DNA of 64,000 bases. Source: a bacterium (GTDB lineage: Bacteria; UBA8248). The stretch is taken from assembly GCA_965219955.1 (NCBI GenBank), contig OZ244799.1:992001-1056000 (forward strand), read 5' to 3'. The notes beneath the pieces are model-generated. The model ran no database searches. It saw only the letters and a list, made by a program, of their open reading frames with translations, and was not told the origin of the DNA. This document shows, in pieces, positions 25,958 to 41,404 of the stretch. Position numbers and translations under genes: made by a program. Position 1 is the first letter of the stretch. Each line of letters starts with the position of its first letter.

Positions 25958-26917
25958 ATGGCATTGGGCACCCGGGGCCGTCCGCCCCAGATTCTGAGGG
26001 CGCTTCCCTCGCTCATCGATCGCATCGGAGGCACGAGCCTCGTCCAGTTGCAGCGTCTTCCCGATGCTTCCGGCGCGCGCGTGTTCGCCAAGCTCGAGCA
26101 ATACAACCCCGGCGGGAGCGTGAAGGACAGAATCGCGCTCAGCATGGTGCTCGACGGCGAGCGGCGCGGCCTCCTGAAGCCCGGCGGGACGATCATCGAG
26201 CCCACGAGTGGCAACACGGGCATTGGCTTGGCGCTCATCGGCGCCATTCGCGGCTACAGGACGATCATCGTGCTCAGCAAGAGCATGAGCCACGAGCGCA
26301 ACTCCCTGCTCACGGGCTACGGGGCCGAGGTGGTCTTCAGCTCCAGCGAGGGCGGCATGTACGGCTCGCTCGTGCTGGCCGAAGCCATCCTGGAGGAGAA
26401 CCCGGACTACTTCATGCCCCAGCAGTTCAACAACCCGGCCAACCCGGAGATCCACCGCAGGACCACGGCGCGCGAGATCCTGCGCGACATGGGCGCGGAA
26501 TCGGTGGACGCCTTCGTGGCGGGCGTGGGGACGGGAGGCACCATCACGGGCGTGGGTGAGGTCCTGAAGGAGAGAAGGCCGGAAACGCTCGTCATCGGCG
26601 TGGAGCCCGCCGCGTCCCCCGTTCTCACGGGCGGGGAACCCGGCCCGCACCAGATTCAGGGGATCGGCGCGGGCTTCGTGCCTGCGGTGTTGAACCGGGC
26701 GATCATCGACGAGGTGATGCCGGTGAGCGATTCGGACGCGTATGAGGTGAGCAAGGCCCTGAGCCGGGAGGAGGGCATGGCCGCAGGCATTTCGGCGGGA
26801 GCGGCGGTAAGCGCGGCTCTTGAGGTGGCGCGGCGGATGGGGCCTGAGGAAAACGTGGTGGTCGTCATTCCCGACGGCTGGGAGAGATATTATAGTCTGG
26901 AGCAGCATTTTCGTTAG
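25958..26917 (+). CDS. cysK: Cysteine synthase A-like PLP enzyme
   Basis: NPGGSVKDR, EPTSGNTG, GVGTGGT, HQIQGIGAGF. Confidence 0.88.
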   Translation: MALGTRGRPPQILRALPSLIDRIGGTSLVQLQRLPDASGARVFAKLEQYNPGGSVKDRIALSMVLDGERRGLLKPGGTIIEPTSGNTGIGLALIGAIRGYRTIIVLSKSMSHERNSLLTGYGAEVVFSSSEGGMYGSLVLAEAILEENPDYFMPQQFNNPANPEIHRRTTAREILRDMGAESVDAFVAGVGTGGTITGVGEVLKERRPETLVIGVEPAASPVLTGGEPGPHQIQGIGAGFVPAVLNRAIIDEVMPVSDSDAYEVSKALSREEGMAAGISAGAAVSAALEVARRMGPEENVVVVIPDGWERYYSLEQHFR

Positions 26918-26970
26918 GCAACTTACTTCAGCATCCCCGGAGAGCGGGGTTTTCAGATCAGGAGAGAGAA

Positions 26971-27249
26971 ATGGCGGTAACGGTTCGTATTCCGACACCT
27001 TTACAGGAGTTCACACAGCAGCAGGACGCCGTGGAGATCGCGGGCGCGGACGTGAAGGAAGTGCTCGCGAACCTCGACAGCCAGTTCGCGGGCATCGGCC
27101 AGCGCCTCTATGACGAGGAGGGCAAGCTGCGGCGTTTCGTGAACATTTACGTGAACCAGGAGGACATCCGCTTCCTGCAGGGAGAGGGAACGGCGGTGAG
27201 CGATGGAGATGAGGTCTCCATCGTGCCGGCCATCGCGGGCGGCCTGTAA
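26971..27249 (+). CDS. MoaD/ThiS-family ubiquitin-like sulfur carrier (CysO-like), C-terminus AGG-L
   Basis: VRIPTPL..RRFVNIYVNQEDIRFL..SIVPAIAGGL. Confidence 0.92.
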   Translation: MAVTVRIPTPLQEFTQQQDAVEIAGADVKEVLANLDSQFAGIGQRLYDEEGKLRRFVNIYVNQEDIRFLQGEGTAVSDGDEVSIVPAIAGGL

Positions 27250-27281
27250 TCGTCCGCAAACCCCGAGAGGAGAGTCGCCCC

Positions 27282-27932
27282 TTGGGCTTGAGCGAAGAGC
27301 AGATTCAGCGCTACAGCCGCCACATTCTGCTCCCTGGTGTGGGAGGAGTCGGGCAGGAGCGCCTGCTGGCCTCTTCCGTCCTCATTGCCTATTCGGAGGA
27401 TGAGGAGAGTGCTGCGCTCACCGCCCTGGCGTATCTGGCGGCTGCGGGCGTGGGCCGGATCGGCTGGTGTCCGCTCGATGGGGGCGACGGGCTCAAGCAG
27501 AAATCGCCGCTCTCCGCCTTCTATGGCGGCAGCCTGGGAGGTGGCCTCAAGAGGTTCAACCCCGATACGAGGCTGGTTCCCGTTCGACCGGACGAGGGAG
27601 CAGGGGAGGTTTTCGACGTCCTCATCCGGCTGGGCGATGAAGGAGCCTCAGATGATGAGAGATTCGAGGCTTCGGCGAAAGCCGCGCTGCGAGGCGTCTC
27701 CCGTGGGGAGGCCGGAGAAATTCTCGAGGGACCCGGCGGTTTCGGGGAGCCGGACGCAATACCATCTCCGAGGGGCGCATCGACAGTGGCGGCCCAGGGC
27801 GCTTTGGGCGCATGGCTGGCCGCGAGAGCCTTGCGGCATCTGGTGGATGAAATGGAAACAGTGGGGTCGACTGCGCAGGCCCGATTCGATTTTTCGCACG
27901 GCCTGATGGAGGCGCGTGCGAACCTTTCCTGA
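27282..27932 (+). CDS. Degenerate ThiF/MoeB-family protein (keeps RYSRH, lacks ATP-binding motifs)
   Basis: EEQIQRYSRHILLPGVGGVGQERL and YLAAAGVGRI present; no GxGxxG, NLxRQ or CxxC. Confidence 0.8.
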   Translation: MGLSEEQIQRYSRHILLPGVGGVGQERLLASSVLIAYSEDEESAALTALAYLAAAGVGRIGWCPLDGGDGLKQKSPLSAFYGGSLGGGLKRFNPDTRLVPVRPDEGAGEVFDVLIRLGDEGASDDERFEASAKAALRGVSRGEAGEILEGPGGFGEPDAIPSPRGASTVAAQGALGAWLAARALRHLVDEMETVGSTAQARFDFSHGLMEARANLS

Positions 27933-27965
27933 GATTTTCAGGAGCTAAGTGCGAGGGCCATACCA

Positions 27966-28904
27966 ATGGTCGAATCGACGGTGGAGAATCCCGCGAGCGC
28001 GTTCAGAAATTTAGAGGATTCCCCAATCATCAAGTGTATCGGCAACACCCCTCTGCTGGAAGTCAAGCTGTTCGAGAGCGAGTTCCCGGACGTGGAGGTC
28101 TACGCCAAGGCGGAGTGGTTCAACCCGGGCGGCTCGGTGAAGGACAGGCCGGCGCTCTTCATGGTGAAGGACGGCCTGGAAACGGGAGCGTTGCGCCCCG
28201 GCAGGATTCTGCTCGATTCCACGAGCGGCAACACCGGCATCGCCTACGCCATGATCGGCGCGGCACTGGGGATTCCGGTGCGCCTCGTCCTGCCTGCGAA
28301 CGCGAGCGACGAACGCAAGGCGACCTTGAAGGGCTACGGGGCCGAGATCGTTTTCTCGGACCCCCTGGAGGGCTCGGACGGCGCGCAGCGCCTCGCGGCG
28401 AAGATGTATCAGGACGAGCCGGAAAAATACTTTTTGCCCTGCCAATACGACAACCCGGCGAACCCGCTCGCCCACGTCGAGACCACGGCGTCCGAGATTC
28501 TCGAGCAGACGGGTGGCCGCGTGGAGCACTTCGTCGCGGGTCTCGGCACTACCGGCACCCTGGTGGGCACGGGGCGCGGCCTCAAGGCGAGAAAACCCGA
28601 CGTCGTGGTGCATGCGGTCATGCCGTCGGAATCGTTTCACGGCCTGGAGGGCATGAAGCATATCCCCACGGCCATTCGCCCGAAGATTTACGATGAGAGC
28701 GTGCACGACAACCTGATTCCGGCGAGCACCGAGGAGAGCTACGAGCTCGCCGAGCGCATCGCGAAAGAAGAGGGTCTCTTCATCGGCCACTCGGCAGGCG
28801 CCGCGCTCGTGGGCGTGCGCGAGGTGGCGAAGCAGATAGGCAAGGGCGTTATCGTCACCCTGTTCCCCGACGGGGGGGACAGGTACCTGAGCGAAGCGCG
28901 CTAG
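27966..28904 (+). CDS. cysM: CysM-like (sulfur-carrier dependent) cysteine synthase
   Basis: NPGGSVKDR, DSTSGNTG, GLGTTGT, GLEGMKH, PDGGDRYLS; context of carrier plus JAB. Confidence 0.82.
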   Translation: MVESTVENPASAFRNLEDSPIIKCIGNTPLLEVKLFESEFPDVEVYAKAEWFNPGGSVKDRPALFMVKDGLETGALRPGRILLDSTSGNTGIAYAMIGAALGIPVRLVLPANASDERKATLKGYGAEIVFSDPLEGSDGAQRLAAKMYQDEPEKYFLPCQYDNPANPLAHVETTASEILEQTGGRVEHFVAGLGTTGTLVGTGRGLKARKPDVVVHAVMPSESFHGLEGMKHIPTAIRPKIYDESVHDNLIPASTEESYELAERIAKEEGLFIGHSAGAALVGVREVAKQIGKGVIVTLFPDGGDRYLSEAR

Positions 28905-28906
28905 GA

Positions 28907-29213
28907 GGGGGTGTTGAAAAAGTCCCGTGGAGCGATTTTGGTTGAGCGCCCGGTCTTGAAGTTCACTCCCCCCTTGAGGGGGTCGGGCTTCCCGAGGGGA
29001 AAGCCCGACAGAAGCCGAGCGTTTTTTGCGAAGGCTGATGCGGTGGGGGGTAAAATGCGTTTTATCGCCACTCCGAATTATACCCCCCACCGAATCGCTT
29101 TCGGGCTTACGCCCTCAGCTCTTCGACTCCCCCTCAAGGGGGGAGTGATTTTTCTCTCTCGTCGGTCAGTTACATACGACAAATCCAGAGTTTCGGACTT
29201 TTTCAACAACCCC
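28907..29213. mobile_element. Non-autonomous TIR-bounded (MITE-like) cassette 1
   Basis: GGGGGTGTTGAAAAAGTCC (28907-28925) / GGACTTTTTCAACAACCCC (29195-29213), 18 of 19 inverted match; internal CACTCCCCCCTTGAGGGGG...CCCCCTCAAGGGGGGAGTG palindrome. Confidence 0.8.
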
Positions 29214-29226
29214 GAGGAGGCTTGGT

Positions 29227-29721
29227 TTGCGTCTGAATCGTGAACAGGTGGAGGCGATGCACCGCCATGCGCGCGAGGCGTATCCCGATGAGTGCTGCGG
29301 GCTGATCATCGGGCCTCCGCGCGGGCGGGGTGGTGCGGAAGAAACGCTCGCCCTCCTGCCTTGTAAGAACGTGCAGAACGAGATGCACGAGAAGGACCCC
29401 GAATTTTATCCCCGGACGGCGCGGCGCGCATTCCTGATCGATCCCTTCGAGTTCGAGCGCATCGTGAGAGAGGCGGAGAAGGGGGGCGAGGTGGTGCGCG
29501 GCATCTTCCACAGCCACCCGGACGAGGACGCCTATTTTTCGCAGGAAGACGTGGATGCGGCGGTTCCTTTCGGGGATATCCCGTCGTTCCCGGAGGCGGA
29601 GCACGTCGTCATGAGCGTGCGCGAAGGCGCCGTACTCGGGCAGAAGGTGTATTCCTGGGACGCGGAGCAAAAGACCTTTATCGAGAGCGATCTGGAAATT
29701 CTCGAGGAGGCGGGCGCGTGA
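29227..29721 (+). CDS. JAB/Mov34 (M67) metalloprotease, Mec-like
   Basis: YPDECCG, HSHPDEDAYFSQED (HxH-x7-S-x2-D). Confidence 0.92.
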   Translation: MRLNREQVEAMHRHAREAYPDECCGLIIGPPRGRGGAEETLALLPCKNVQNEMHEKDPEFYPRTARRAFLIDPFEFERIVREAEKGGEVVRGIFHSHPDEDAYFSQEDVDAAVPFGDIPSFPEAEHVVMSVREGAVLGQKVYSWDAEQKTFIESDLEILEEAGA

Positions 29722-30527
29722 GCCTGCATCATCCTCGCGCGGGGTTGCCCGGTGAAGCGCCGCCGGCGGCCGTGAACGCATCCACGGCGCGCGTGATCGA
29801 TAAAAGCGCACTGGCGGGTTCATCCGTCCTCATCGTGGGCGTCGGCGGCCTGGGCTGCCCTGCGGTGCTCGCCCTTGCGGCTGCGGGCGTGGGGCGGGTC
29901 GGCCTTGCGGACCACGACACGGTGACGCTCGACAACCTCGCGCGCCAGATTCTCCACCGCACCGAAGACATCGGCCGCCTGAAGGTGGACTCGGGCGCCG
30001 ATTCCATATTCAGGCTCTCCGCCCAAGTAGCGGTGGACAAGATTCCCCAAAGGCTCACGCGCGAGAACGCCGCCAGAGTCATCGCGCCCTATGACGTAGT
30101 AATCGACGGCAGCGACAACCTCGCGGCCAAACTCGCGCTGAACGACGCCTGCGCCGCCACGGGCAAGCCGTGGGTGATGGGCGGCGTTTTGCGATTTTTC
30201 GGCCAGGTGATGACAATTCTGCCGGGCCGGAGCGCGTGTCTGAGGTGCCTGGTGGGCGAGGAGGGCGCGGACGTCCGCGGACTCGATTGCGGGGATGCGG
30301 GCGTTTTCGGCGCGGTGGCCGGTTTCGTGGGCATGGCGCAGGCAGCGGACGCGCTGCGGGTCCTCAAGGGGCTTGCGCCGGCCTGGTCGAACAGGCTGAT
30401 GACGGCCGATTTACGGAAAAACGCCGTCGGGAGCGTGCGCGTGGTCCGGGATCCGGATTGTCCCGCCTGCGCGCTCGCCGGGAGCGGGCAAACGAAAATC
30501 CCCGCGGGGCGGGGAGCGCTCGTTTAG
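29718..30527 (+). CDS. ThiF/MoeB-family adenylyltransferase (E1-like) lacking N-terminal RYxR motif
   Basis: GVGGLG, DHD..DNLARQ, K, DGSDN, CLRC, Cys in LDCGDAG, CPAC; no rhodanese domain. Confidence 0.92.
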   Translation: MSLHHPRAGLPGEAPPAAVNASTARVIDKSALAGSSVLIVGVGGLGCPAVLALAAAGVGRVGLADHDTVTLDNLARQILHRTEDIGRLKVDSGADSIFRLSAQVAVDKIPQRLTRENAARVIAPYDVVIDGSDNLAAKLALNDACAATGKPWVMGGVLRFFGQVMTILPGRSACLRCLVGEEGADVRGLDCGDAGVFGAVAGFVGMAQAADALRVLKGLAPAWSNRLMTADLRKNAVGSVRVVRDPDCPACALAGSGQTKIPAGRGALV

Positions 30528-30565
30528 CGAATGGGGCAGGGAGAGACGATGAGAGGATGCCGCCG

Positions 30566-31018
30566 ATGAAGATATCGACCAAAGGGCGATACGCCGTGCT
30601 CGCCATGATAGAGCTGGCCCGGCATTCGCAGACGCATCCCGTGCCCCTGCCGCAGATTGCCGGCAAGCTCGGCATCAGCCAGCACTATCTCGAACAGTTG
30701 TTCGTGAAGATGCGCAGGGCCTCTCTGGTGAGCAGCACGCGGGGGCCGGGAGGCGGCTACATCCTCGCGCTGCCGCCCTCTGGGATCAACATGCGCGACG
30801 TTCTCTGCGCGGTGGGCGAGACGATTCAGCCCGTCGATTGCGGCGAAGAACCTCCCTCGGCGCCGTGTCCGAACATTTCGGTGTGCGGAAGCCGCGCGCT
30901 TTGGAAAAAACTCGAAGACGCCATAGACAAAACGCTGCGCGAGACCACGCTGGAGGAGTTGAGCGCGCCGCCGCCCGGCTCTGGCGTCCGGCTGCCCAAC
31001 TTCGAGGTGGGTATCTAG
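30566..31018 (+). CDS. Rrf2-family (IscR/CymR-like) regulator with three Cys
   Basis: MKISTKGRYAV, YLEQLF, STRGPGGGY, C-x8-C-x5-C. Confidence 0.93.
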   Translation: MKISTKGRYAVLAMIELARHSQTHPVPLPQIAGKLGISQHYLEQLFVKMRRASLVSSTRGPGGGYILALPPSGINMRDVLCAVGETIQPVDCGEEPPSAPCPNISVCGSRALWKKLEDAIDKTLRETTLEELSAPPPGSGVRLPNFEVGI

Positions 31019-31054: not shown

Positions 31055-31285
31055 TTAGCTTTTTCTGTCTTGTTTAGCCCATCCCCTCTTAAACCACTCT
31101 CTTTCCTCTATTTCTTCGTCTATCAGTCTTTCAATTTCATTCTGGGCTTTAGGATTGTCTTTGTATTTGATCCACATGGCATCGAGTTTATTTAATGCAT
31201 CGTTAAAATCTCCTAAAACTTCATCTCGCTCTTCGTCCTTTTTCAGGGTTTCTTCGTCCGGCCTATTTGGTCCCACCCATGACAT
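31055..31285 (-). CDS. Small acidic hypothetical protein in AT-rich islet
   Basis: 76 aa ORF with AGGAG upstream; AT-rich codon usage. Confidence 0.6.
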   Translation of the reverse strand: MSWVGPNRPDEETLKKDEERDEVLGDFNDALNKLDAMWIKYKDNPKAQNEIERLIDEEIEEREWFKRGWAKQDRKS

Positions 31286-31428
31286 TTATATTGCTCCTAG
31301 GTGAAAGATTAGTAATGTGTAATTGGCTTGTTCTATTTAGTTTCTATGCAAACATCCAAGATAGCCAAAATGCTCAAGGTGTTTAGGTCTCATTTAAATT
31401 TTTTGGCTCTTGATTGAGGAGAATGATA

Positions 31429-31749
31429 CTAAAACGATTGTTGCCACACGGATTTACCTCGTGAAGAATCAGGCCATACGACTTTCACACCTTTTTGTTG
31501 CTGCCCTTTCTGATGCACAAGCAAAATAGTTTCAGGGTCTAGGGTATAAATTTCTTCATTTTCCGTTCTAATAAACCCTTCTGCTTTTTTCTGTTTGACC
31601 TGCGCATACAAAACACCATTATCATCTTTTCTTGGATTTTCTACCTCAACAGTGAGCACATGCTTCCAGTCATTCTTATTGTCGGGCAGGTTGAATTCCC
31701 ATGAAAAATCATCCTTGAATTGAAAAATTTTGTAACACTCTATTACCAT
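31429..31749 (-). CDS. Hypothetical protein in AT-rich islet
   Basis: 106 aa ORF with GAGGAG upstream; AT-rich codon usage. Confidence 0.62.
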   Translation of the reverse strand: MVIECYKIFQFKDDFSWEFNLPDNKNDWKHVLTVEVENPRKDDNGVLYAQVKQKKAEGFIRTENEEIYTLDPETILLVHQKGQQQKGVKVVWPDSSRGKSVWQQSF

Positions 31750-33116: not shown

Positions 33117-33565
33117 AGGCTGTTGAAAAAGTCCCTCGATGCCGGAAAACCACCGTCATTCCGGCGAAAGCCGGAATCCATTTTCGCCTTTCGTCTTTGA
33201 TCGTTATTCCGGCGTTAGCCCCGCTCAGGACGGGAGAGAATGCGGAGTCCGGAGCCGATGAGGGCGGATACGTTCAGGCGTTTGATTGCGGCTTTGTCGA
33301 GCATGAATCAAGGCGAAAAGCAAAAGTCAAAATGGATTCCGTCGAACCCTTCCTCTGCGGTCGGCTCCGACACCGGAATGACGAACAAAACCACGCCGCC
33401 TCACCCTGAGTAGCCGCCGAAGGTAAAACGCGACTGAGAAAGGAGCGTTTGTATCGAAGGGCGCTCCCCTTCGGCAATCTCAGGCCAGGCTCCCGGCTCT
33501 CCCTCGTCCCTCGATACGGCGCGCAAGCGCGCCTACTCGGGATGAGGGGGTTTTTCAACAACCCC
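33117..33565. mobile_element. TIR-bounded cassette 2
   Basis: AGGCTGTTGAAAAAGTCCC / GGGGTTTTTCAACAACCCC; cargo CGTCATTCCGGCGAAAGCCGGAATCCA plus inverted copy, and CCTGAGTAG..GTATCGAAGG units. Confidence 0.8.
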
Positions 33566-33771
33566 GGGCAAGGAGGGTTTGAACGCGCATTTCCCCGCAT
33601 TTGCCGGACGCTTTCCCCGCCGCTTCCGCGTTATGCTCCCACCGCCCGTTCATGCGGGCGGACCCGGTGACGCCACCGGGCCTTCACGGCCGGTTCGAGA
33701 CGGGAGAGGGTGTGCAAGCGATGAAATTTCCTGGAACCAGGACGGGAACCCTGAAATTCGAATTCCCGAAC

Positions 33772-33902
33772 AATTCGATAAATATCGATAAATTTCTGAA
33801 AATGTTTATGGGTCAAACTAACGGAATATTATTCTATGAATTAGCAAGATGCCGAGATATGTTAAAGTAATACATTATGAATTTATCGAAATTTATCGAA
33901 TT
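33772..33902. repeat. AT-rich 23-bp inverted repeat, each arm made of two 10-bp direct repeats
   Basis: AATTCGATAAATATCGATAAATT (33772-33794) vs AATTTATCGAAATTTATCGAATT (33880-33902), one mismatch. Confidence 0.85.
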
Positions 33903-33954
33903 AAAAAAGTTTTCCGGACCCCGCATTTGCCCGCATTTCCTCTCGGAAACTCCC

Positions 33955-34638
33955 CTAGTCATCCGGGTTGGGTTCGGGGAACTCCTCGGGCCAGTTGTCG
34001 ATGAGCGATTGCAGGTAGGCCTTCATCTTGTCGGGGTTCCCGCGCACGGATTTCCTGATCTTGTTCACCTCGCCCTCGTTCTCGATGGGGATGGCGAACG
34101 AGTCCATGAAGCGGTTCATCATGCCCTGCTTGCCGCTCATGAGGGACATCTCGACGATCTCGCCGTCGGTGAAGTGCCGCTTGACCTCTTCGAGCACGCC
34201 CGGGTCCTCGCGCGCGGTGTTTCGCGTAAAATGCTCCGCCCACAGGCAGGCGGCGCGTTCACGGGGGCTCAAAACCGGGGATGTCATGTAGTCGTCCGAG
34301 GCGATGGCCTCGATCTGCTCATCGGTGATTCCCGTCGCTTGACCAAGCGCGGTGTTGTGCGCGATTCAGTAGGCGCAGGCGTTGACGAAGCTCGTCTTCA
34401 AGACGACGATCTCCTTGATCCTGCACGTCAGCAGCCCGCCCATACCCTCGCGCTGGAGCGTGGCGTTGAAGGGGAGGTAGAAGCGCGCGATGTAGGGCGT
34501 GTTCGCCATCGCGAGCGCGGAATTGGGGATGCGGCCCAGAAACTCGCGCGTCGCCTCGAAAAAGCGCGCCGTATCGCCCGCCGCCTCATCGGGGTTCAGC
34601 AGCCGGATTTTGCTCGTCTCGCTTGCCTGGTTCGTCAT
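33955..34638 (-). CDS. AhpD/carboxymuconolactone-decarboxylase-family selenoprotein (CxxU, TGA at 34366-34368)
   Basis: ORFs 34366-34653 and 33955-34287 are in frame; read-through gives KEIVVLKTSFVNACAY-U-IAHNTALGQATGITDEQIEAI..LSPRERAA; AAGAGGA upstream of ATG 34638. Confidence 0.85.
34336..34349 (-). promoter_or_regulatory. Candidate bacterial SECIS apical hairpin
   Basis: mRNA sense CGCUU-GGUC-AAGCG; stem begins 16 nt and loop 21 nt after the UGA; G-containing loop. Confidence 0.65.
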
Positions 34639-34801
34639 GGTTGTCCTCTTCATGGGGTTCAGGATTTCGGGTGATTATAGAAGAACCCTCCGCCCTTGGG
34701 AATCGGGGAGGCTGCGCATTACGCCGAGCCCGGCTGTTCTGATAACATGGCGCGCATCTCGCGTGAATTGTACTTGCATACGAAACTGAAAGGAGGCCCG
34801 C

Positions 34802-35446
34802 ATGGCCGATTTTGACCTGGAAATGACCGACAAACTCCTCTCCACGACGCGCTCCGTTAGAAAGCGGCTCGATTTCGGTCGTGAAGTGCCGACGGAGGTC
34901 GTGATGGAATGCTTGGAACTCGGCCTTCAGGCCCCCACGGGCTCGAACCGGCAGGGCTGGCGCTGGCTCGTGGTGACGGATGAGGGTCTGCGCAAAGAGC
35001 TCGGACGGCTCTACCGCAAGGGAGGGGATGAATACCTCGCGCAGGGTCTGGCCCAGGCGCGCGAGAGTGGGGCTTCCCAGGACGAGCGGGTGTTCGATTC
35101 CGCCCTCTATCTGGCGGAAAACATCGAGCGCGCGCCCGTGCACGTGATCCCCTGCATCCAGAATTTCCTGCCCGAGAACCCGCCGAGGTTCATGTGGGCG
35201 GGCCTCATGGGTTCGATCATACCGGCTGTGTGGAGTTTTCAGCTGGCGCTGCGCTCGCGCGGACTGGGTTCGGTGTTCACCACGCTGCACCTGCGCTGCG
35301 AGGCGGAAGCGGCGGAACTGCTCGGCGTGCCGGATGAATTCATGCAGGCGGCGCTCATCCCGGTGGCTTATACGCTCGGGACGGACTTCAGGCCCGCCCG
35401 GCGGCGCCCGCTCGATGAGATCGTGCACGTGAACACCTGGGGTTGA
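34802..35446 (+). CDS. Nitroreductase-family flavoprotein
   Basis: TTRSVRKR, QAPTGSNRQGW, LALRSRGLGS. Confidence 0.92.
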   Translation: MADFDLEMTDKLLSTTRSVRKRLDFGREVPTEVVMECLELGLQAPTGSNRQGWRWLVVTDEGLRKELGRLYRKGGDEYLAQGLAQARESGASQDERVFDSALYLAENIERAPVHVIPCIQNFLPENPPRFMWAGLMGSIIPAVWSFQLALRSRGLGSVFTTLHLRCEAEAAELLGVPDEFMQAALIPVAYTLGTDFRPARRRPLDEIVHVNTWG

Positions 35447-40992: not shown

Positions 40993-41404
40993 GGGTTGTT
41001 GAAAAACCCCGATTAACGAGGGTTTGACGCGCCCGATGAAAGGGCAAAAAACACGCCCCCCTGAGGTTGTTGAATAACCCCTCCTCGCTCGGAGTTGACC
41101 ACCGCCGCGTAGAGAAAGGTCGCGACGTGTTCTTAAGGCGCCTCCTCCCCGGTCGGCCCCAAACCTTCATCCTGAGTAGGCGCGCAAGCGCCGTATCGAA
41201 GGATGGGGGTCACGTCTCTCCGGCGGGGGCGAACTTCACCCTTCGACAGACTCAGGACAGGCCCCTTCGATACGCGGCTTCGCCGCTACTCAGGGTGAGG
41301 GGTGTCGGGGAACGGCGGAGCCTGTCCCGAGCGAAGTTGAGGGGCCGCTACTTAGGGTGAGGCGGATCGGCGCGTAGCGCAGGGCGGCTTTTTCAATAAT
41401 CCCC
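40993..41404. mobile_element. TIR-bounded cassette 3 (two left ends, one right end)
   Basis: GGGTTGTTGAAAAACCCC (40993), AGGTTGTTGAATAACCCC (41064), GGCTTTTTCAATAATCCCC (41386-41404); cargo CATCCTGAGTAGGCG..GTATCGAAGG and CCCTTCGACAGACTCAGGACAGG units. Confidence 0.75.

Follow-up and report, generated by a model that had tools for sequence, protein, structure and literature searches.

A stop-interrupted AhpD/CMD-fold gene of a UBA8248 bacterium very probably encodes a CxxU selenoprotein

In a 64,000-nucleotide stretch of a bacterial contig (the window), a gene that a stop codon seems to disrupt is very probably intact and codes for a redox enzyme containing selenium. The gene is a further member of the AhpD/CMD-like CxxU class that has been predicted since 2005, and its clade is unnamed by NCBIfam. 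We propose, with a probability of about 0.72, that the product is a selenol/thiol oxidoreductase of this class that cycles through a Cys88-Sec91 bond. The evidence comes from the reading frame, the conservation of the UGA in relatives, the constraint on a downstream hairpin and the fold. The coordinates of the features are collected in Table 1.

The gene runs on the minus strand, which the initial annotation had not given, from an ATG at 34638 to a TAG at 33955. Its frame contains exactly one internal stop in 227 codons, the TGA at 34368-34366 (codon 91), within the sequence VNACAY*IAHNTALGQ. The two in-frame ORF fragments around a single TGA that the initial annotation had described, ending in NACAY and resuming with IAHN, were recovered, and the codon does fall at the second-Cys position, since NACAYC aligns with NGCAYC of PA0269. 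The suggestion that gene callers split the gene also held, as a plain ORF listing gives 34366-34653 and 33955-34287. We favour the start at 34638 over the ATG at 34653 because AGAGGA lies 5 nt upstream of the former, and the database fragments of close relatives begin at the same Met. Two sigma-70-like sites were found compared to 0.4 expected in shuffles. The plus-strand frame of 33955..34638 was discarded as unrelated antisense and not a gene.

Table 1. Features of the candidate selenoprotein gene and their positions in the window
Feature	Position	Strand	Basis
Predicted AhpD/CMD-fold selenoprotein gene, 227 aa	33955..34638	-	Translation, Pfam CMD, model, fold matches
In-frame UGA, codon 91, predicted to be read as selenocysteine	34366..34368	-	TGA 79/80, TGC 1/80; opposite second Cys of AhpD CxxC
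Cys88 codon, predicted partner of Sec91	34375..34377	-	Cys in 80/80 primary loci
Very probable bacterial SECIS: core stem CGCUU/AAGCG (34349-34345 with 34340-34336), GGUC loop (34344-34341), lower CCG/CGG, bulged A	34332..34352	-	Fold, codon constraint, pair changes
Shine-Dalgarno-like AGAGGA, 5 nt before ATG 34638	34644..34649	-	Sequence
Sigma-70-like promoter match TTCCCA-17-TATAAT, just upstream	34674..34702	-	Consensus match only

Relatives were collected in one scan of species-representative genomes using the pattern AA[VC]LWAEH, which lies 40 residues from codon 91 and leaves the UGA column untouched. The scan returned 166 pattern matches, of which 119 were confirmed, and the best 80 of these 119 loci, from about 68 genomes as judged by their titles, were used. 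The 80 loci (numbered L) are 46-98% identical to the window protein, and their titles cover several phyla (Nitrospinota/Tectomicrobia labels, Rhodospirillales, Betaproteobacteria, SAR324 and Acidimicrobiia). The closest labelled relatives, L005, L006, L008 and L010, are titled Nitrospinota or Nitrospinaceae and show 94-96% identity. Among the best 80 of the 119 relatives, column 91 is TGA in 79 loci and TGC in one (L064), and is TAA or TAG in none. TGA occurs at no other aligned column of the 80 loci; besides column 91, a terminal TAA is the sole stop within the alignments. The residues E76, C88, Y90, H94 and N95 are each invariant (80/80). The TGA is still present in L023, which has a frameshift near residue 140, and in L080, which runs off the end of its contig. 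The initial annotation had staked its reading on close relatives sharing both the TGA and the hairpin, and both are present. No close relative was found in the plasmid collection, where all 284 records were below 60% identity and the top rows at 27-32%.

The frame is conserved and purifying selection is seen on both sides of the UGA. For 22 close sequences, pN/pS is 0.18 in codons 104-117, the stretch left untranslated under the split reading, compared to 0.13-0.17 elsewhere in the gene. Met118 is Leu in 12 of the 80 loci. The protein collection gave 45 short matches, 17 of them N-terminal fragments, and 16 of these 17 end exactly at C-x-Y; seven of 15 near-length matches are single-domain forms with Cys at column 91. 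That the UGA is a true stop, in a pseudogene, by sequencing error or between two genes, or that an altered genetic code makes it Trp or some other residue, is extremely unlikely. Databases do hold the two halves as separate proteins, and four database proteins (P0005, P0010, P0153 and P0200) carry Trp at the Sec column, probably as gene-caller translations made with genetic code 4. However, a stop would remove the invariant H94 and N95, and the same codon, never TAA or TAG, is kept in 79 loci from several phyla. Recoding is likewise opposed by the confinement of TGA to this one aligned column and by its use at the end of 15 of the 68 single-domain copies and of many window genes; it is therefore an ordinary stop in the genomes of those copies.

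The initial annotation had pointed to a CGCUU-GGUC-AAGCG hairpin with its loop 21 nt after the UGA, and this hairpin is present at 34349-34336 on the minus strand. Its 4-nt GGUC loop, stem of 5(+3) bp, distance of 21 nt and folding energy of -10.4 kcal/mol, which includes the CCG/CGG extension over a bulged A, agree with the four bSECIS rules quoted in PMC13188914. The rule is loose. With a crude version of the published rule (limit -7.5 kcal/mol), 341 of the 1859 TGA triplets in the window (18%) also passed. The same filter passed 53 of 79 primary TGA homologues and failed 26, among them most of the nearest relatives, with many of the 26 missing the limit by about 0.5 kcal/mol; it passed all nine TGA paralogues and four of 11 non-TGA copies. 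Compared to shuffles, the hairpin was not exceptional (z of -0.56 to -1.34 in four folds), and we rejected it as stand-alone evidence.

Constraint on the underlying codons was more telling. Codon use was compared in 38 genes dereplicated at 85%, taking family codon use as the expectation and ignoring kinship. Leu98 is CTT in 92% (12% expected), Gly99 is GGT in 89% (12% expected), Gln100 is CAA in 97% (31% expected) and Ala101 is GCG in 92% (38% expected). Near-invariant synonymous positions are confined to codons 96-103, and outside codons 94-103 only two Ser positions deviate, an effect of the two Ser codon blocks. Synonymous divergence (pS) is 0.09 in codons 96-103 compared to 0.28-0.39 in long flanking segments. 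All 84 distinct sequences have a loop starting with GG, which in 75 of them is GGUC, and RNAalifold on 53 of the 84 predicted the same 5-bp stem. Over a 7-bp stem, 88.9% of cells are paired compared to 81.5+-1.0 in shuffles, and 24 double changes were counted compared to 8.1, although divergent paralogues supply most of these changes and relatedness is not accounted for in the shuffles. A compensatory U-A to A-U change in L040 and L054 replaces Gln with Leu. The motif is lost in L064, the only Cys orthologue with DNA, and in Cys-less duplicate domains. Collectively, the frozen synonymous sites, the compensatory changes and the loss in the Cys copy suggest that the hairpin is very probably a SECIS.

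The read-through translation matches Pfam CMD (PF02627) at 33 bits, above the cut-off of 23, and neither half matches. AlphaFold, given an alignment of 24 rows, yielded a model (pLDDT 90.6) with the all-helical AhpD fold, and Foldseek and VIA-align matched it to AhpD-like chains, among them 6k40 (Z 19.6, rmsd 2.9, 185 aligned, TMq 0.68), Bmp8 (Z 17.4, rmsd 2.4, 170 aligned) and Mtb AhpD (Z 13.6). By sequence, PA0269 is the best solved relative. After about residue 196 the protein continues into a clade-specific C-terminal helix and a WP-x-x-FP tail, and the last ~30 residues have no counterpart in solved AhpD-like chains. The frame, Pfam match, fold, conservation and hairpin constraint together support the earlier proposal of a 227-aa CxxU selenoprotein with an AhpD/CMD fold and a SECIS. 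Matches to TAL-effector PDB entries were set aside as summed hits of one short repeat, none significant singly.

The window protein passed no NCBIfam model. It resembles the AhpD-like (TIGR01926/COG2128) and CMD-like (PF02627) CxxU selenoproteins in the CxxU motif, the fold and the in-frame UGA with a probable SECIS downstream, but scores 50 bits with TIGR01926, below the cut-off of 81.8 (Cys relatives reach 56-77). The clade also has about 30 C-terminal residues more than solved relatives, and some members are tandem fusions. The homologous AhpD-fold models NF053654 (YciW-related) and NF041238 (AhpD-related CFYUT) are the best and fourth NCBIfam matches, but the window protein lies far below their cut-offs (53.2 bits against 310 and 22.4 against 175), and the tested relatives fail too.

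The active site reads E76, C88-A-Y-U91-I-A-H94-N95. The canonical AhpD relay Glu-x11-Cys-x-(His/Tyr)-Cys is present as E76, C88, Y90 and U91, invariant apart from Sec/Cys, so that the protein shares with Mtb AhpD, PA0269 and D. radiodurans DR1765 both the fold and the Glu-x11-Cys-x-Tyr-Cys/Sec spacing. In contrast to these proteins, it has Sec in place of the second Cys and no linked ahpC. It also departs from the canonical His four residues after the second Cys, since its relay His stands at i+3 and Asn95 occupies i+4 in all 80 loci. The AhpD relay is given as Glu36, Cys48, Tyr50, Cys51 and His55, with both Cys and His55/His137 called invariant (PMC3141380). The initial annotation had taken CxxC-xx-H for the AhpD motif, which is incorrect: PA0269 and Mtb AhpD have CxxC-xxx-H, whereas the motif here is CxxU-xx-H-N. 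The homologue set has 90 motif matches, of which 59 show the xx-H spacing and a further 10 have both His; the spacing therefore marks a broad branch and not one activity.

In Mtb AhpD the second Cys is the attacking one, and Sec usually occupies the attacking position. By analogy with the standard bacterial mechanism, UGA91 would very probably be decoded as Sec, with the GGUC hairpin recruiting SelB-Sec-tRNA. Sec91 lies where helix 89-101 begins, and its selenolate is then predicted to attack a substrate in the oxidised state; a hydroperoxide or the disulfide of an oxidised partner protein, for instance a peroxiredoxin, is the likeliest candidate. Cys88 would resolve the adduct to form a Cys88-Sec91 selenenylsulfide, and a dithiol donor, which is dihydrolipoamide/Lpd/NADH in characterised AhpDs, is predicted to re-reduce it. 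Glu76, Tyr90, His94 and Asn95 may act as a modified proton relay. Peroxidase activity of the window protein is likewise a prediction. AhpD is reduced via lipoamide/NADH and acts on peroxides or AhpC (PMC8945050), PA0269 is only a weak peroxidase (PMC3141380), and for one AhpD-like dithiol reductase the intrinsic peroxidase activity is low (PMC10460364). The neighbourhoods count against the oxidoreductase reading, as neither a peroxiredoxin nor a lipoamide gene recurs as a conserved neighbour and Prx-like genes occur in only two of the 80 loci. Both of these (L067:7303-8598 and L070 near 6362) have an in-frame TGA in W-U-P-W-C; a GGUCG hairpin and a fusion to a C-terminal extension were also seen.

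The same selenoprotein could instead act as a reductive dehalogenase like the debrominase Bmp8 (6ohi/6ohj; background in PMC7918430), or as another small-molecule reductase, with the selenolate attacking a halogen or electrophile and Cys88 resolving. We consider this unlikely. Bmp8 was found both by sequence (E 1e-6) and by fold, and its site, G-C82-M-Y-C85-K-S-H88, has the His spacing of the window protein, unlike PA0269 and Mtb AhpD. Sec is used for dehalogenation by the iodothyronine deiodinases, and the genes that recur around distant homologues serve mostly catabolism and transport, with PrdB-like selenoproteins in five of 80 loci. However, identity to Bmp8 is 18%, its Z score is equalled or exceeded by those of eight other AhpD-like entries, and the xx-H spacing is common to most homologues. 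Bmp8 also lacks the relay Glu that is invariant in the window clade. Moreover, the Cys mutated in the solved complex (C82A) is the first one, whereas Sec here is at the second position, and no bmp-like cluster was noticed among the neighbours examined. It is doubtful that the clade as a whole is a selenium-dependent reductive dehalogenase on the AhpD fold, with a Bmp8-type CxxU-xx-H site armed with Sec. In that case bacteria of several phyla would have a counterpart of the Sec deiodinases that lacks the thioredoxin fold, has changed repeatedly from Sec to Cys and includes a form fused to a pseudo-enzyme.

A role as redox carrier or regenerating subunit for another enzyme, such as a PrdB/GrdB-like selenoenzyme, and not as an antioxidant, is also improbable. 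PrdB-like genes with U-P-x-C at a TGA, a UxxC arrangement, lie within a few kb in L040, L042, L048, L069 and L072, and all of these except L069 also have extra CxxU paralogues beside them. In ten of the 80 loci a second AhpD domain follows the Sec domain in frame, and it has neither Cys nor Sec in the nine that are readable, which suggests an oligomeric or partner-binding role. On the other hand, the PrdB-like link is restricted to five of 80 loci, and the window gene is solitary, with a nitroreductase divergent from it on one side and a Gfo/Idh/MocA gene convergent with it on the other. Our preferred reading remains a selenol/thiol oxidoreductase of the AhpD/CMD-like CxxU class. In the selenoprotein clusters themselves (L040:5841-11350, L042:7138-10663 and L072:6805-10657, also L048 and L069), one to three AhpD-like CxxU genes accompany a PrdB/GrdB-like UxxC gene that has a long extension at its C-terminus. 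A conserved gene with no Pfam or NCBIfam match (cluster of L045:9174-9920) is divergent from the orthologue in L029, L042, L069 and L072.

The fused form, found in L035, L036, L038, L040, L045, L048, L050, L054, L058 and L060 (for example L048:10001-11365), is a tandem enzyme/pseudo-enzyme of about 450 aa. This in-frame fusion accounts for the 290-360-aa database proteins that top the profile search. In L038, insertion sequences interrupt the second domain. A further nine CxxU paralogues were found in eight of the 80 loci. In a quick unrooted tree of 101 rows, 41 of them Sec rows after dereplication, the window gene falls in a 59-row group (support 98). Every Sec orthologue is in this group, together with the degenerate domains and several Cys forms nested within it, and the paralogues are placed next to Cys relatives in three separate groups. 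P0078 and P0084, rows labelled Cys, are without the motif and fall with the degenerate domains. The tree suggests repeated exchange of Sec and Cys. L040, L054 and L035 are titled Chitinophaga, Bordetella and Streptomycetaceae, but their genes group with betaproteobacterial copies, and these titles may be wrong.

selA, selB, selC and selD were not found in the 64-kb window or its close flanks. SelA/SelB motifs gave no match, Rfam reported only a tRNA in the window, and ARAGORN found no tRNA-Sec in the window or the 80 loci. A SelD motif gave 13 matches, of which the one in L025 was confirmed and the others look like chance. The L025 gene (1027-3294) is an oxidoreductase-SelD fusion with the CGGCGAK form (TIGR00476 282.7, above 125), and it converges on the selenoprotein gene from the opposite strand with a 10-bp gap. 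L024 and L026 come from FO_M_Nitrospinota_01, a genome to which BSepDB assigns 54 selenoprotein genes (PMC13326102 Table 2). It is one of three UBA8248 genomes labelled Nitrospinota/Nitrospinae that BSepDB places in its top ten for selenoproteins (PMC13326102; taxonomy background in PMC10839748). For specialists, a gene of this kind is to be expected in the lineage, and the surprise is low unless the substrate is unusual.

The statement in the initial annotation that AhpD/CMD-like selenoproteins are known from environmental surveys agrees with the literature. The Sargasso Sea set of 2005 contained 27 AhpD-like and 4 CMD-like CxxU sequences (PMC1088965), and the GOS set of 2008 contained 299 and 70, respectively (PMC2398784). 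In Table 1 of PMC13188914 (2026) the class is 'predicted with high confidence' and experimentally unverified. We found no paper in the open literature on the window clade, its fused form or the PrdB-like link; the BSepDB website, figure alignments and supplements may hold them. Recognition of the clade fixes a systematic annotation error, as protein databases hold it as 90-aa and 110-aa fragments or as chimeric-looking 330-360-aa proteins. It is a good test case for Sec versus Cys because it combines a compact, near-invariant probable SECIS with natural Sec/Cys orthologues and a Cys-less duplicate domain. The clade allows a side-by-side comparison of Sec and Cys activity and of the shifted His.

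Flank-ORF clustering of 62 of the 80 loci revealed no neighbour common to the whole family, and the recurring neighbours are housekeeping, catabolic or transport genes. The divergent nitroreductase noted in the initial annotation is indeed the neighbour of the window gene (34802-35446), but a conserved partnership is not seen: the 22 loci (of 80) that have it are all from close relatives, and the remaining 58, many with short flanks, lack it. Its restriction to the closest loci gives no evidence of a functional pair, and the link is lineage synteny only. The synteny in close relatives includes a radical SAM gene, tRNA-Glu and a cysteine-synthesis cluster. In the window this cluster (25958-31018) has, by inspection, two cysteine-synthase-like genes, a MoaD-like carrier, JAB-like and MoeB-like genes and an Rrf2-like regulator.

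Several minor features lie nearby. Two short low-GC ORFs at 31055-31749 (76 and 106 aa) gave no convincing Pfam match and have no counterpart in any of the 80 loci; they are probably a recent insertion. Nested inverted repeats at 33118-33563, with 20-nt arms at 33118-33137/33544-33563 and 33172-33191/33322-33341, resemble small mobile or REP-like elements, and similar pieces are found at 41164-41209. An AT-rich island between two convergent genes (33720-33930) contains 23-nt inverted repeats of tandem TCGATAAA at 33772-33794 and 33880-33902. About 11 close relatives have retained this island and others lack it; it is possibly a protein-binding site or a remnant promoter.
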